Shown piece after piece: positions 13,812 to 20,742 of a stretch of DNA of 64,000 nucleotides (positions are counted from its first letter, which is position 1; each line of letters begins with the position of its first letter). The notes beneath the pieces are model-generated. The model was not told the DNA's origin. It saw nothing but the letters and a program-made list of their open reading frames with translations, and made no database searches. Source of the DNA: Candidatus Dojkabacteria bacterium (lineage in GTDB: Bacteria > Patescibacteriota > Dojkabacteria > J137); NCBI GenBank assembly GCA_030950485.1, contig JAUZRK010000003.1:20228-84227 (forward strand), written 5' to 3'. The translations under genes were made by a program, and so were the position numbers.

Positions 13812-14666
13812 TCAAGAATTAACATATTCTCCCTTCACATAGCTGCCTAATATTTTTAGCTTCTCGACATAACTAGACAACTCTTTTAATGCATTATTAA
13901 GTGCTTCATCAGCCATACCTGCTGCAACATCCACATAAAACCTATACTCCCAGTCTGTTCCTATAACAGGCCTACTTTCTATTTTAGTTAGAGATAAATC
14001 TCTATCAGCAAAAGCTCTAAGAGTCTTATATAATGAACCCGCTTCTGACCCTAGAGTAAATTGAAAAGTAGTCTTGTAACCATTATCTTCATTATTGACT
14101 ATTCTTTTTATTTCTCCTTCATCTTCTGGTCTACTAATCACATAAAATCGAGTATAATTTTTTGGGTTCTCATGAATGTTGTCTTCAAGTATCTCAAGAT
14201 TGTAAACTTTTGCCGCCATCTTACTAGCGCAGCCTGCTGATGTAATCATATTATTTTCAGCTACCATCTTTACTGAGCCTGCAGTATCTTCATGCTCATG
14301 AAATTTGATTTCTGGATGAGCCAGTTCAAATGGTTTTATTTGACCTCTTGCTACAGGGTGTACATAAATATCAGTTATGTCTTTAAGAAGTTTCCCTTTA
14401 TGGCCAATCAAATGAAAGTTAACTTTAACGTAAACTTCTCCAACCAATGAAACTGAGTAATTAGTAATATTGTCATAATTTTGATAAATAGATCCATATG
14501 TTGAGTTTTCAATTGGCACAACAGTAACGTCAGCAAGCCCTGATTTCAAATCTTCAAATACCTCTCTAAACGAACCTCGTTGAAGAAGATCAATTTCAGA
14601 TCCAAAGACTTGATCCGCAGCAATGTGCGAATAAGATGCTAAATTCCCTTGTATAGATACTTTCAT
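13812..14666 (-). CDS. pheA: Prephenate dehydratase (PDT + ACT), copy 1
   Basis: QG..ASYS, VPIENS..G, HPVA..Q, NYTRF, LTKIESRP..WEY.FY.D. Confidence 0.92.
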   Translation of the reverse strand: MKVSIQGNLASYSHIAADQVFGSEIDLLQRGSFREVFEDLKSGLADVTVVPIENSTYGSIYQNYDNITNYSVSLVGEVYVKVNFHLIGHKGKLLKDITDIYVHPVARGQIKPFELAHPEIKFHEHEDTAGSVKMVAENNMITSAGCASKMAAKVYNLEILEDNIHENPKNYTRFYVISRPEDEGEIKRIVNNEDNGYKTTFQFTLGSEAGSLYKTLRAFADRDLSLTKIESRPVIGTDWEYRFYVDVAAGMADEALNNALKELSSYVEKLKILGSYVKGEYVNS

Positions 14667-15838
14667 AATATTTCTGATAATTTTTTAATACCTTCATCTA
14701 TGCTCTTTAAATCAGGACTAGAAAAATTTAGTCTTAATTTATTCTTCCCATCTAATTTATTGGGAGTAAATAAAGTTCCTGGCACAAATGATACACCATT
14801 ATTAATTGCTTTTTTATAAATTAGATCAGAATCTATATCGTTCTCTCCTTGTAACCAAATAAACATACCCCCTTCAGGTTCTGCGTAACTATAACTCTCA
14901 GGTAAGTATTTATTCAAAGCTTCGACCATTATATCCTTTCTCACTTTATATATTGAGCTCATCTTTTTAACATTAGTATAGAATCTTTCATTGTCTAATA
15001 TTTCTACAACCACATTTTGAGCTAATACATTTGCATGAACATCAACTGAAAATCTCATTGCGTTTATTTGATCTATCAATTCAAACGGACCTGTATAAAA
15101 CCCTACCCTTAGTCCTGGCCCTATAGATTTAGAAAATGTTCCTAAATAAATTACGTTCTCAGCAGCTAAAGAGTATATGCTATTTATCTGCTTATCATTA
15201 AAGTTAATGTGTCCATACGGATCATCTTCAAGTACAATTAAATCATTGTATTTAATGATCTTTGCTAAAGCAGTCCTTCTTTGCTCAGACAAGGTATAAC
15301 CAGATGGATTTTGAAAAGTAGGAATCAAGTAAGTTAACTTAACATCATACTTCTCTATAAGTCTCTCATACTCACTAATTATTATCCCTTCAGAGTCCAT
15401 AGGTATAGGTACTATCTGTGCTTTACAACTTTGCATTGACTGTAAGGCTGCAAGAAAAGTACACTCTTCTACAAGCACAACATCCCCTTCATCTAAAAAA
15501 GCTTTACAAACTGTATCGATAGTTACTTGACTACCTGAAGAAATGCCTACACTTCTAGAATCAATCTCCAAATTTTGTGTTCTCTTTAAAAACCTTGCAA
15601 CGGCTTCTCTAAGTTGTGGAATCCCATTACTAAAACTATAGTTCATTAGTGATAAATCATTTTTTCCTAGAACCTTATCTACTGACTCTTTAAATAGTTC
15701 ATAATCAAGAGACTCTGCCGCTGGATGACCAGCTGCTAGTGAAATAAGATTGTCTACACCAAAGGTGCTTAAGCTATCACGAACAATCTTAGAGTCCATC
15801 AACCTATTTCTTTCTGATAACTTTTTAATATAATTCAT
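14663..15838 (-). CDS. PLP-dependent class I aminotransferase (LysN/ARO8-like), probable aromatic aminotransferase
   Basis: ISLAAGHP, IPTFQNPSG, EDDPY, GTFSKSIGPGLRVG, PEGGMFIW, LRLNFS. Confidence 0.9.
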   Translation of the reverse strand: MNYIKKLSERNRLMDSKIVRDSLSTFGVDNLISLAAGHPAAESLDYELFKESVDKVLGKNDLSLMNYSFSNGIPQLREAVARFLKRTQNLEIDSRSVGISSGSQVTIDTVCKAFLDEGDVVLVEECTFLAALQSMQSCKAQIVPIPMDSEGIIISEYERLIEKYDVKLTYLIPTFQNPSGYTLSEQRRTALAKIIKYNDLIVLEDDPYGHINFNDKQINSIYSLAAENVIYLGTFSKSIGPGLRVGFYTGPFELIDQINAMRFSVDVHANVLAQNVVVEILDNERFYTNVKKMSSIYKVRKDIMVEALNKYLPESYSYAEPEGGMFIWLQGENDIDSDLIYKKAINNGVSFVPGTLFTPNKLDGKNKLRLNFSSPDLKSIDEGIKKLSEIL

Positions 15839-15847
15839 ATGTATTTT

Positions 15848-16678
15848 CTACTTATTTAATTTATTTCTATATCTTCCTATAATTGAATATTCTATTGTAC
15901 ATTTATCTAATATTGTTTTCAAACCTATCTCAGTTGATGAATCTACAAGCATGTCTATCCAAAAAGCATATTCCCAATTTGTATCTGGGATTGGCCTTGA
16001 TTCAATCTTTGTTAGCGATATGCCTATACCTCCGATACTAGTCAAAAGATTCGCTAGTGATCCAGCAGAGTGCGATACTCTATATATAACGGATATTTTC
16101 TTATAGTCTTTAGCTGACTCCTCAACTTCAAATACATTATTACTAACAAATATAAATCTTGTAACATTATTAGAGTAGTTGCCTATATTTTCTATAAGAA
16201 TTTTTAAGCCTTTTTTCTTTGCAAGCTCAGCTGAACCAATACAAGCTTTAGTCTTATCTTTTAACTTCAGAATATCCTCAGCACCCGCAGCAGTACTTTT
16301 AGATTCGTTAACTCCATACCCTCTTTCATTAATCATTTCAGAACACTGAGCTATAGCTTTGGGATGAGAATATACTTCTTTAATATCTTTGATCTCGGCG
16401 CCTTCTAAAACTATGAGATTTAAAACTATATCCATATTTGCTTCGCCTACTATCCTAAGCTCTTTCTTGAACATAAAATCTATATTTACATGTACTGTAG
16501 AAGTAATTGAATTCTCGATCGGTAAAACTCCAATGGTATTAGAATTAGTTATACACCTCTTTACAATTTCGTTAAAATTGTCTGATGGTTCTAAATTATA
16601 ATCGTTAGAATCAAAACATTTAGAAGAAATAATTCCAGAATAACTTTGTTTTGGTCCTAAATAATATACTGTTTTCAT
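15848..16678 (-). CDS. pheA: Prephenate dehydratase (PDT + ACT), copy 2
   Basis: YLGPKQSYS, LPIENS, SHPKAIAQC, NVTRF, LTKIESRP..WEYAFWID. Confidence 0.9.
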   Translation of the reverse strand: MKTVYYLGPKQSYSGIISSKCFDSNDYNLEPSDNFNEIVKRCITNSNTIGVLPIENSITSTVHVNIDFMFKKELRIVGEANMDIVLNLIVLEGAEIKDIKEVYSHPKAIAQCSEMINERGYGVNESKSTAAGAEDILKLKDKTKACIGSAELAKKKGLKILIENIGNYSNNVTRFIFVSNNVFEVEESAKDYKKISVIYRVSHSAGSLANLLTSIGGIGISLTKIESRPIPDTNWEYAFWIDMLVDSSTEIGLKTILDKCTIEYSIIGRYRNKLNK

Positions 16679-17439
16679 TCTTCTTTAAGTCTTAATTGTT
16701 TGTTAGATATTTGAGACATAGTCTCTTCTATTGACATCTTTATTTTGTCAAACTGTTTACTACAGAATGGATTAAAGTTATACATATCCTCAGTAATCTC
16801 CATATCAGCACCGATCCTTTCTACAAAATCGTGCATTCTTGATGCTGATACTGTGTCAATTTCAGTCCTCTTCATACTCAATGTTTTAAGCACATGAGAA
16901 ATAGTTAGAGTAGTAAAGTGAAATTCTGAGGCTAGTTCATCATGTCTTTCTGCTGAGATTTCTACAATTTTGTTTTTTAGCTTAATAAATATATCCTTTA
17001 CTATATTGTAAATCTCCTCACTTGCGTTAATATTTTCAATCACAATATTAAAACCCTCTACAGAATTATTATTATGTTTATAAGACTCTGGCCCATACAT
17101 TGGATGGGTACAAATTTTCATTACTTCTACCGGAAGCTCTTTAATCATAATTTTTTTGGGATAAGATTTAATAGAACAAACATCTATAAATATTGAATCA
17201 TTATCTATATACTTTGCTACTTCCCTAGTAACTTTTTCAAATGCTTTTATTGGCACTGATGGAATGACAATGTCGCATTTACAAGCATCTTCAAAATCAA
17301 AAAAGTCTTTGTTATCAATTTTCTTTGACCTTGAAGAAAATTTAATTTGGACATCTACAATTACATCTTCAAACATTGTTTTTAATAGTTTCGAAAACTT
17401 TCCATATCCTATTATCCCTATTGTTTTAATTTCCTTCAT
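16675..17439 (-). CDS. tyrA: Prephenate/arogenate dehydrogenase (TyrA family)
   Basis: IGIIGYGKF Rossmann motif, DVCSIK, THPMYGP, HD. Confidence 0.88.
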   Translation of the reverse strand: MKEIKTIGIIGYGKFSKLLKTMFEDVIVDVQIKFSSRSKKIDNKDFFDFEDACKCDIVIPSVPIKAFEKVTREVAKYIDNDSIFIDVCSIKSYPKKIMIKELPVEVMKICTHPMYGPESYKHNNNSVEGFNIVIENINASEEIYNIVKDIFIKLKNKIVEISAERHDELASEFHFTTLTISHVLKTLSMKRTEIDTVSASRMHDFVERIGADMEITEDMYNFNPFCSKQFDKIKMSIEETMSQISNKQLRLKEE

Positions 17440-17735: not shown

Positions 17736-19603
17736 TTAAAATTCTATTCCCCCTTTTATATTCTCAGTGTTATTTCTTATTAGGAAGAGTCTCTTTAAAA
17801 ACTCAACTATCCCTAAATCTTCATTACTCCAATAATAAATCATTGCCCACAGATTGCCCTTATTTGCTGCTATTTCTGCTGAATCCCACTCTCGACCTTT
17901 TGTATCCATATTAAATTTTGCTTTCAGACTTCCAACTATCCTATTCAACATACCTCTCAAACCTTCTACAGCTGGTCTCTCAGAGGAAGCAATAGCATAT
18001 GTTGCCATATTAGCGTTTGGTATATCAGTTCTTGATTCCTCTAAGTCTGTCAAAGGATCTTTACCCGTATATCTTATATTTGGGTCATTCATAATTACTC
18101 TTCTCTCCCATACGTCTTTTCTGCTAAATAAGTAGCTCCATCTTCACCTTGCTTAAGCCTTCTACCTGTACCCATTATTAGGTCAACTCCACCCCTACAA
18201 ATATCGGGGAGTGATGATAGTGATGTCATATTTTTTATTATTGAGTCATATTAATTAACAAGCATTTGGATCAATTCATTGTCTTTATCTAAATCTAGAT
18301 TATGAGCCATTGTAGCCAGTTCCAAAAGTTGATCTGCAGTTAATCTTAAATTTCCTACCCATGCTCTGCCATTTACAAACTGAGTCGAAACAGTTCTAAT
18401 AACTCCCCCCATTCTAATATGAGCTGATAGAAGACCGTATCTGAGCTTTTCAATTTCGCCATTATCCATTTTTATATATATTTCATCTGGTATTACAGCT
18501 TCTTCAATTACGAATCCTCTAAAGTCGGGGTTTTTACTATATTCATCTATAATCAGTTTACTAATTGCTTCAACCTTAGAATTAATATCACCGAACTCCC
18601 ACATAAAAACCTCTACACCATCTCCGTCTGTCCCAAGCCTTCTTTTTAAAACTACATCTGCAACATTATGCTTTTTATGCATTATTCTCAATGTTCCTCT
18701 AATATATAGATTTAATTCCTCAATAGTCATATCACTATCTAGTTCAAGGCAAAACCCTAAACCAAGAGCAAGATCTTCAGGGTTACCACCTGCCGCAGAA
18801 ACTCTTTGATATATTTCGGACTTAGTTTTATCTGGCAGGTTATTTGAATACATTATTTCTTCAGCAGTTTTACTAGATATATCATTTATCTCTTCCCTGA
18901 GGAGTTTAGGATATAAATTTCCCTTATCTATTAATTTAGCCGACTCTGGACCATTAGCCATTACAAACAGTGGAACTCCAACTTCTTGACTTAAGTAAGA
19001 TATAATTATTTTCATTTCAAGATCAAGGTGATACAGATCAATAGCAATATTTTCCTTTCCAAGCTCTTCTATTAAAGTGGCTATCACTTGAGAACCTTGA
19101 GTTTTTAAATTATCTTTATGATCTCTCATAGCCAGTAAAATACTGTGAGAAGTGTAATACATTTCTTCATTACCTATTTTTAATTGTATTCCCTTGTATT
19201 GATCTCCATCTGCTCTAGGGTACCCTTCTCTCCCAGAAAGAACGGTAATGTCACCCTCAGCCTTAGACATGTAGGTTCTCTGAGTACAGACTGAATTAAT
19301 ATCTATTCCCATTTTAGTTGCAACATCGATTTCATGATGATTCATGTCCCTTGTCCCTGAGGCTATAGATAAAGTCCTCCTAGGTGAAATACCAGCTAAA
19401 TGACTATCTATATTTCTTCTACTTAAAGGTATCATTGCTTGCTGACTTAAATGTATATCTAAACTATTCATTAATTCTTCTCCAAGTAATTCCTCACCTA
19501 TTGCCTCTACTCCGCTGTTTGTCAAAACTATTAAGCTACCTCCTTCTTCGCCAAAGGAGAGTCTATCGTATTCTTCTCCAATTTGTAAATTTTCTATAGC
19601 CAT
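17736..19603 (-). pseudogene. ATP-grasp ligase-like protein of about 620 aa, interrupted (in-frame TAA at 18251-18253 and frameshift near 18120)
   Basis: VVLKRRLGTDGDGV and FVIEEAV in ORF 18251-19603; reading through TAA gives RGGVDLIM; adding one A in a poly-A run joins VIMNDPNIRYTG of ORF 17736-18092. Confidence 0.6.
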
Positions 19604-19624: not shown

Positions 19625-19649
19625 AAAAAAAATCCCCTTTCGGGGATTT
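19625..19649 (-). terminator. Attenuator terminator hairpin
   Basis: Minus strand AAATCCCC-GAAA-GGGGATTTTTTTT, about 20 nt upstream of the ATP-grasp start. Confidence 0.92.
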
Positions 19650-19683
19650 ATATGTTTTTCTACTAGATATGCAAAAACAACCC

Positions 19684-19749
19684 CTAATTAGGATTTCCAA
19701 AAAAGTAAAAGAAAAAATAGTTTTGGTTTGTTTTTGTTTTATTATTCAC
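19684..19749 (-). CDS. Phe/Tyr-rich attenuation leader peptide MNNKTKTNQNYFFFYFFGNPN (pheL-like; not in ORF track)
   Basis: GTG start, seven consecutive Phe/Tyr codons, TAG stop; followed by alternative hairpins and terminator; upstream of Phe/Tyr genes. Confidence 0.88.
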   Translation of the reverse strand: MNNKTKTNQNYFFFYFFGNPN

Positions 19750-19755
19750 GAACTG

Positions 19756-19764
19756 ATGATAACA
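19756..19764 (-). promoter_or_regulatory. Extended -10 promoter giving a leaderless leader-peptide transcript
   Basis: Minus strand TGtTATCAT ends 6 nt before the GTG. Confidence 0.55.
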
Positions 19765-19837: not shown

Positions 19838-20742
19838 TTATAAGTCTCTATTCTTCGATATATCAACGACTAGTTTTTTAAGCTCACTGATAGAAATATG
19901 CTGCCCAGTATCTGTTTTAGATGTACCAACTTCTATTAAAATCCCATCATATAAAAATCCGCTTTCATTCAACTTCATATTAGCTGCATCAATCGTAGCA
20001 TCTAAAATACTGTCTCTCATTCTTGGACCATAGGCATGGCTTGGGTCAAAGTACAACTTACAACCGGTTCTCTTTTTTACTCTAGCTGCATGATTATGCA
20101 TAGGATAATTTCTATAGTCAGCTTTTTCTGGAATATCAAATCCTCTATGAATCAATACCGTGTGATTCTTATTATCAGAGTAACTAAGCCTTCCCAAGCA
20201 CTCTCAATAGGAGTTTTTAACTCAGAATTTTTATAATTATCTGCAACTTCAATATGTTCACCAACCCATTTCCCATTTTTTAATCCAACTACCCATTCAT
20301 TTTCTTTTGCAACAGCACTCATTTGCATTACTTGCCAGCCTAGTTGATTTACAGAAGGGTTCCAAATCATAACTTTTTGCTTTGGTAATTCTCTTGAGAG
20401 AACAGGTAACTGTACTATTGGCATCATTATTTCTGTAGCAATATTCAAACCTGTCTTTTTAATTATTTCTTTTGCAATTTCTATACTTGGTGGAATTTGA
20501 AAATCTTTAATATTCCCTCCCTTTGGTAGAAGTTGGAAATTGTACATTAAAGTTTCGTAATCCATTCCCATTCCCTCTCCTGACTTATCTAAAACTGTTC
20601 TAGATTTAAGACCTACAATTCTTGTTCCTGTAATTGCCATTTTGCCATTAATCTCTATCTTTGCAATTTCTAAAATCTCCTTTTTATTATTATCTATAGA
20701 ACATGGTCCCGCATAAATTGAGAACTTTTTATTTTTAATCAT
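19838..20742 (-). pseudogene. DAHP synthase I-beta-like, split by frameshift near 20180
   Basis: AGPCSI, KSRT, ATEIM, LKNG in ORF 20152-20742; LIHRGF, YRNYP, FDPSH, DGILIEV in overlapping ORF 19838-20197. Confidence 0.78.

Follow-up and report, generated by a model that had tools for sequence, protein, structure and literature searches.

In the window, by which the whole analysed stretch of 64,000 nucleotides from Candidatus Dojkabacteria bacterium is meant, the minus strand carries a genuine leader element upstream of genes leading from chorismate to phenylalanine and tyrosine. It very probably works as a transcription attenuator that depends on ribosomes and responds to the charging of tRNA-Phe and tRNA-Tyr. 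Direct observations on its sequence, on the families of the downstream enzymes, on conservation, on the match between leader codons and enzymes and on the co-variation of competing RNA arms form the basis for this assignment. The element comprises:

19756..19764, minus strand: extended -10 promoter element (TG at 19764-63, hexamer 19761-19756), 6 nt 5' of the leader GTG
19684..19749, minus strand: leader ORF, GTG at 19749, 21 codons followed by TAG
19699..19719, minus strand: control codons 11-17, a consecutive run of five Phe and two Tyr codons
19672..19736, minus strand: predicted protector helix, leader codons 5-9 (19736-19725) pairing with the post-stop segment (19683-19672)
19679..19695, minus strand: predicted stop-codon hairpin, weak (-4.6 kcal/mol)
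19642..19684, minus strand: predicted antiterminator (-8.2 kcal/mol), G run at the stop codon pairing with the C run of the terminator 5' arm
19625..19649, minus strand: intrinsic terminator, 8-bp stem at 19649-19630 (-11.4 kcal/mol) and eight T at 19632-19625

Coordinates re-read on the minus strand returned what an earlier note on this DNA had described, an extended -10 element followed after a 6-nt gap by a 21-codon GTG ORF with a Phe/Tyr run. The C-terminal residue of the leader is Asn, followed by TAG. The promoter match alone is at chance level (6 sites observed, 6.1 expected), and its -35 is weak (9/12 matches). Throughout the genome (1.41 Mb, 31% GC, 92% complete), seven out of seven Phe/Tyr codons were found in five of 28,761 short ORFs. 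One of these five, the Phe/Tyr leader alone, has a terminator within 110 nt.

The genes on both sides of the attenuator are:

19838..20742, minus strand: DAHP-synthase-like gene upstream of the attenuator, frameshift near 20182-20194, 52-58% identity to an intact relative
17736..19603, minus strand: ATP-grasp-like protein, broken, first controlled gene, read as ORFs of 450 aa and 118 aa
17426..17707, minus strand: chorismate mutase type II (family search)
16675..17439, minus strand: prephenate dehydrogenase, tyrA (family search)
15848..16678, minus strand: prephenate dehydratase, pheA copy 1 (family search)
14663..15838, minus strand: class I/II PLP aminotransferase (family search)
13812..14666, minus strand: prephenate dehydratase with ACT domain, pheA copy 2 (family search)

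The gene after the ACT-domain pheA is presumably tuf, as recognised from its sequence. Control of six downstream genes had been claimed; the number is right only when the ORFs of 450 aa and 118 aa are counted as a single broken gene, while co-transcription is something we infer. The two ORFs are regarded as a single gene because a profile of nine homologues of 546-618 aa spans both. Its alignment continues beyond the stop that closes the 450-aa ORF and, weakly (E 0.001), reaches the 118-aa ORF, which lies in a different frame. That both ORFs belong to a single gene had escaped the earlier note. The gene is interrupted twice, by an in-frame stop at 18253-18251 and by a frameshift at some point from about 18166 to 18098. 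On each side of the attenuator the neighbouring gene is broken (20152-20197 and 18098-18253), either by biology or by assembly error. The locus may therefore be decaying or misassembled.

A once-functional attenuator of genuine origin, now without useful regulation in this strain, would fit the frameshifted DAHP-like gene and the stop and frameshift in the first downstream gene. It would also fit the lack of upper-pathway genes, as neither chorismate synthase nor DHQ synthase was found in the 92% complete genome and both PF00275 matches resemble MurA. Promoter, leader ORF, antiterminator and terminator are intact, however, as are all five pathway ORFs from chorismate mutase to pheA-ACT. The missing upper pathway is normal in the class, since chorismate synthase was present in just 5 of 221 class genomes, compared with pheA in 47 and tyrA in 29. 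Loss of function by decay is considered improbable, and a working attenuator is preferred. From its gene content, the class appears to keep the terminal Phe/Tyr pathway without the shikimate pathway. The far more frequent retention of pheA and tyrA than of chorismate synthase leads to the testable idea of precursor scavenging. An origin from CPR bacteria, assumed in the earlier note, is borne out by the named loci related to the genome's pheA: 12 of 16 are named as Patescibacteria lineages, eight of these as Dojkabacteria/WS6.

The earlier note had proposed the ribosome-stalling architecture of E. coli pheL and trpL, with a hairpin over the stop codon and an antiterminator competing for the terminator 5' arm. 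Folding predicts both structures (-4.6 and -8.2 kcal/mol), and the antiterminator and the terminator (-11.4 kcal/mol) are predicted to be mutually exclusive. The main fold predicted for the untranslated RNA is the protector helix, a stronger helix that was absent from that note. The stop-codon hairpin is a possible pause element; for a pause that synchronises transcription and translation, prediction gives just this weak hairpin and the protector helix. The fold z-score of the whole region is just -1.4.

Ribosome positions were modelled by constrained folding of nascent RNA truncated at the terminator loop, the ribosome edge being set at 9 or 12 nt beyond the A site. With the ribosome on codons 11-17, the terminator 5' arm remains sequestered at a modelled P of 0.68-0.88 (edge +9), compared with P 0.0 for a ribosome at the stop (codons 20-22). 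The stalled position gave more sequestration than the at-stop position in all but two of the 27 leaders at +9 and in all but one at +12. The model thereby predicts the geometry of a pheL-like switch, with the antiterminator available during a stall and blocked by a ribosome at the stop. Modelled stalls at codons 3-10 or 18 sequester the arm to a similar extent as those at codons 11-17, so specificity rests on codon content only. In full-length RNA at equilibrium, the terminator forms with P 0.8-1.0 once its 3' arm has emerged. The switch must be kinetic because the terminator wins the equilibrium after release of this arm. Kinetic switching is established for trp-type attenuators.

It is proposed that transcription starts probably at or next to the GTG, so that a ribosome would load on a leaderless mRNA. 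With both Phe and Tyr plentiful, the ribosome would reach the stop codon and mask the G run. The terminator would fold, and the transcript would end at the T run near 19625. Scarcity of either charged tRNA would stall the ribosome on codons 11-17 and melt the protector helix. The G run would then be free to pair with the terminator 5' arm before the 3' arm is synthesised. By this earlier capture, the polymerase would read into the ATP-grasp-like gene and the chorismate-to-Phe/Tyr genes. Start site, coupling of translation to transcription and starvation response are steps that we infer from the arrangement.

The surroundings of pheA and tyrA were compared in 48 class relatives and 29 genomes of other classes. 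Aromatic-codon leaders with terminators occur in 14 of the 48 and in 3 of the 29. The earlier note had named as its own test that Phe/Tyr codons be conserved in front of homologous operons, and in these genomes they are. For G101, one of the 14, the leader lies at the DAHP locus and was found via an Rfam match. No such leader was seen in 34 class relatives and 26 genomes outside, some of which have other control, while the rest are cut by a contig end or show nothing. A gap scan with fixed criteria covered 94 loci and 1.0 Mb, window included. Of 127 gaps near pheA/tyrA-type genes, 18 carry an aromatic leader, compared with one among the 416 other gaps; this enrichment is given no p-value weight because kin are not independent. 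The lone leader among the other gaps precedes a DAHP synthase and a chorismate mutase. DAHP synthase in relatives is mostly situated downstream of such a leader.

A set of 27 leaders, 22 aromatic and five Asn, was picked from the scans after the leaders had been seen. Tyr codons are missing from all five leaders of pheA alone; the four leaders of tyrA alone each contain 5-6 of them, along with 0-2 Phe codons. Both Phe and Tyr codons are present in all nine leaders before pheA and tyrA enzymes together. A leader preceding trpS and tyrA contains two codons each for Trp and Tyr, and one before tyrA and an aminotransferase is mixed. The genomes G017 and G021 each harbor one Phe-only and one Tyr-rich leader. 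Leader codons track the downstream enzyme, Phe-only with pheA, Tyr-rich with tyrA and mixed with both, the single-amino-acid leaders being mostly from one genus and non-independent. The dual sensing of Phe and Tyr suggested earlier is backed by this matching across the leaders of relatives.

Pairing between the stop-proximal segment and the leader's own terminator arm averaged -8.3 kcal/mol versus -5.2 +/- 0.4 for permuted arms (0/20,000; 27 leaders, of which three long ones fall outside the fixed segment used). Antiterminator and terminator arms co-vary across the 27 leaders. The contrast is small for the window's own leader, whose arm is matched in pairing strength by 10 of 25 foreign arms. 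Two aromatic leaders per locus, in tandem or one per gene group, were seen before tyrA-pheA fusions (L087 in G062, L246 in G262). Two Phe-rich matches away from aromatic genes (L080, L097) were judged to be chance.

The hairpin might also be a plain terminator of the upstream DAHP gene; the Phe/Tyr run would then be a chance product of T-rich DNA. Such a reading draws on the 31% GC of the genome, on the DAHP-like ORF ending ~190 nt upstream on the same strand, on the chance-level promoter match and on the region's z-score of -1.4. It is contradicted by the gap counts (18/127 versus 1/416), the codon-enzyme matching and the arm co-variation, and is very unlikely.

The first controlled gene has no Pfam or NCBIfam match in its 450-aa protein, and a pattern scan of the genome contigs confirmed no relative. 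A homologue of the 450-aa protein was found in just one of 220 class relatives, G075, where it is intact. Atlas matches of the protein are to pre-ATP-grasp/PGM1-type clusters. Its product, modelled with a pLDDT of 71, resembles 8ynd and 3wvr in Foldseek (E 5-7e-4, TM about 0.35). Overall, the Foldseek matches are biotin carboxylases and ATP-grasp ligases (TM 0.25-0.36), and the modelled fold is ATP-grasp-like. The G075 homologue lies behind an 89-bit T-box with the Phe specifier UUC and has no Phe/Tyr-type leader ORF in front. Because this homologue follows a Phe T-box, the ATP-grasp-like gene probably does belong to the Phe response. Elsewhere in the cluster, locus L245 (G075, contig C15), two tandem Tyr/Trp leaders precede a divergent orphan of 456 aa; an M20-like peptidase and a pre-ATP-grasp protein are present as well.

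The resemblance of this fold to ATP-grasp peptide ligases (Atlas; Foldseek 8ynd, 3wvr) would allow the short ORF to be a RiPP-like precursor for the adjacent ligase, with the Phe/Tyr genes supplying aromatic residues. The same leader design, however, precedes pheA or tyrA without a ligase, the intact G075 homologue is preceded by a T-box instead of such an ORF, and leader residues beyond the control codons are not conserved. A precursor peptide is hence given hardly any probability, and the ORF is taken as the leader peptide of an attenuator.

Shine-Dalgarno-like motifs were located 5' of just 36 of 1041 ORFs in this genome. Genome-wide, -10-like hexamers peak 6-7 nt before ATG, with 112 at 6 nt versus about 30-60 at most other spacings. 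Scarce Shine-Dalgarno-like motifs and the hexamer peak at 6 nt make leaderless initiation of the Phe/Tyr leader plausible. A leaderless mRNA, which the earlier note had called probable, gains support from the genome-wide spacing and motif counts. By eye and without a background count, a -10-like hexamer was read 5-8 nt upstream in 17 of the 27 leaders.

Mycobacterial polycysteine leaders are similar in that leaderless short ORFs with control codons occur at several loci per genome, termed a 'ribulon' (10.1101/834739, partial text). They act on translation by freeing a ribosome-binding site, while an intrinsic terminator is used here (10.1101/834739, partial text). Translational attenuation of that kind, in which stalling would expose the start codon of the following gene, would suit the leaderless design and a next start codon 29 nt past the T-run start, but is extremely improbable given a GC stem and T run in every leader scored (a selection criterion, although the T runs are long) and leader-to-gene distances varying from 15 to over 300 nt.

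The transcription attenuator shares with pheL-pheA of E. coli and Gammaproteobacteria a short ORF with Phe codons, an alternative antiterminator and a U-run terminator before pheA (PMC3082878, partial text). It differs in the admixture of Tyr codons and in tyrA belonging to the same downstream gene set. E. coli pheL has a Shine-Dalgarno sequence, whereas the leader here probably starts from a leaderless GTG. The ORFs of the enterobacterial pheL group end in a Pro-UGA frameshift context, in contrast to Asn-TAG here (PMC3082878, partial text). Outside Gammaproteobacteria, pheL was found only in Bacteroides and Desulfobacterium, as far as the partial text of the source goes (PMC3082878). The Rfam model Phe_leader (RF01859) matches the leader over its whole length with 34.8 bits and E 0.003, below the gathering threshold of 55. 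This match alone is weak because similar sub-threshold matches occur in 77 of 121 class genomes; in none of the 121 was the cut-off exceeded. The leader would work like E. coli pheL, yet it falls outside RF01859 by score and outside the enterobacterial pheL group.

Control of aromatic synthesis linked to Tyr-tRNA has been proposed before, the Shewanella aroF leader being called an 'attenuator sensing tyr-tRNA' (PMC2659441, partial text). In the partial text of that source no Tyr-codon leader is described for aroF, whereas Tyr-only and mixed leaders are explicit here (PMC2659441). Interchange of T-box and leader peptide for the same gene is known between and within Firmicutes and Proteobacteria (PMC2965389, partial text). 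Here it occurs within one CPR class, for tyrA and for the ATP-grasp-like gene. Codon-enzyme matching and T-box interchange make a strong comparative case for the attenuator.

CPR bacteria are described as mostly incapable of making amino acids (PMC13293708, partial text). The partial text of this 2026 phylum review has no passage on such regulation under 'attenuat' or 'regulat' (PMC13293708). No paper on attenuators or T-boxes in Patescibacteria was found in a search that covered few subscription journals; the earlier note likewise knew of no such attenuator in CPR bacteria. The mechanism is known; the lineage, the probable leaderless start and the dual sensing are new within the literature searched.

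T-box model RF00230 gave no match at the Phe/Tyr leader locus. Four sub-threshold T-box matches lie on other contigs of this genome, C14, C10, C27 and C1 (L249-L252). Together with L006 and L244, the T-box matches in Dojkabacteria reach 41-89 bits, below Rfam's 93. At the gathering threshold, Rfam reported no leader or T-box in 12 loci. Before tyrA in G012, a T-box with the Tyr specifier UAC stands in place of a leader. Another T-box-like motif, seen by eye before tyrA in G031, was unreported by cmscan at E <= 0.01.

In G019, G012, G011 and G023, pheA is located behind asnS with an Asn-codon leader. At least five Asn codons and a terminator were seen before asnS in L062 (G019), L064 (G012), L066 (G011), L069 (G023), L075 (G004) and L275 (G021). 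The asnS of L062 was identified by family search; those of L064, L066, L069, L075 and L275 we take to be asnS from their N-termini. A tRNA-like sequence lies between leader and asnS at some of these loci. No published Asn-codon attenuator was found in the literature searched.

Dojkabacteria keep sensors of tRNA charging before pheA, tyrA and several tRNA synthetases. Their retention implies coupled transcription and translation as well as swings in amino-acid supply in organisms not yet grown. As codons track enzymes, leaders provide a clue to the function of orphan genes. An example is the Phe link of the unstudied ATP-grasp family, which is backed by the Phe T-box in a second family. A joint reading is put forward tentatively, at slightly less than even chances. 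It holds that in Dojkabacteria, and in Patescibacteria at large, amino-acid control relies to a great extent on modular leaderless attenuators and T-boxes, including specificities for which no published case was found (Tyr-only, mixed Phe/Tyr, Asn, Lys, Arg). In its Phe/Tyr form, such an attenuator would switch on a terminal pathway fed by host chorismate or prephenate and a Phe-responsive ATP-grasp ligase family. If this is true, leader codons could reveal the amino-acid link of orphan CPR enzymes.

Further leaders with terminators were observed in the same genome. They comprise Lys codons before lysS (L146), Trp codons before a fusion of trpS with an editing domain (L148) and Tyr codons before an archaeal-type tyrS with a tRNA-binding domain (L149). 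The Lys leader was present at one of 30 lysS loci, the genome's own, and is not conserved. An Arg-rich match before dnaX was dropped as an attenuator; it resembles the end of a small ribosomal protein, which we presume this ORF to be. On the minus strand of L147 (4040-4339; G000, contig C1), the gene of a TrpR-family protein of 99 aa closes with four His codons, directly followed by a terminator and then by two orphans and hisS. Judged from this arrangement, the TrpR-like gene may double as a leader peptide. L150 (G000, contig C5) has tandem Arg-rich leaders before a run of orphan, BtpA and NUDIX-like genes, and in L151 (G000, contig C7) a methyltransferase-like gene and an M20 peptidase follow two Ile-rich leaders. 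Short hydrophobic ORFs, Ile/Leu-rich or Met-rich and accompanied by terminators, were seen in L256 (G034), L263 (G043), L273 (G052), L254 (G005) and L276 (G081).
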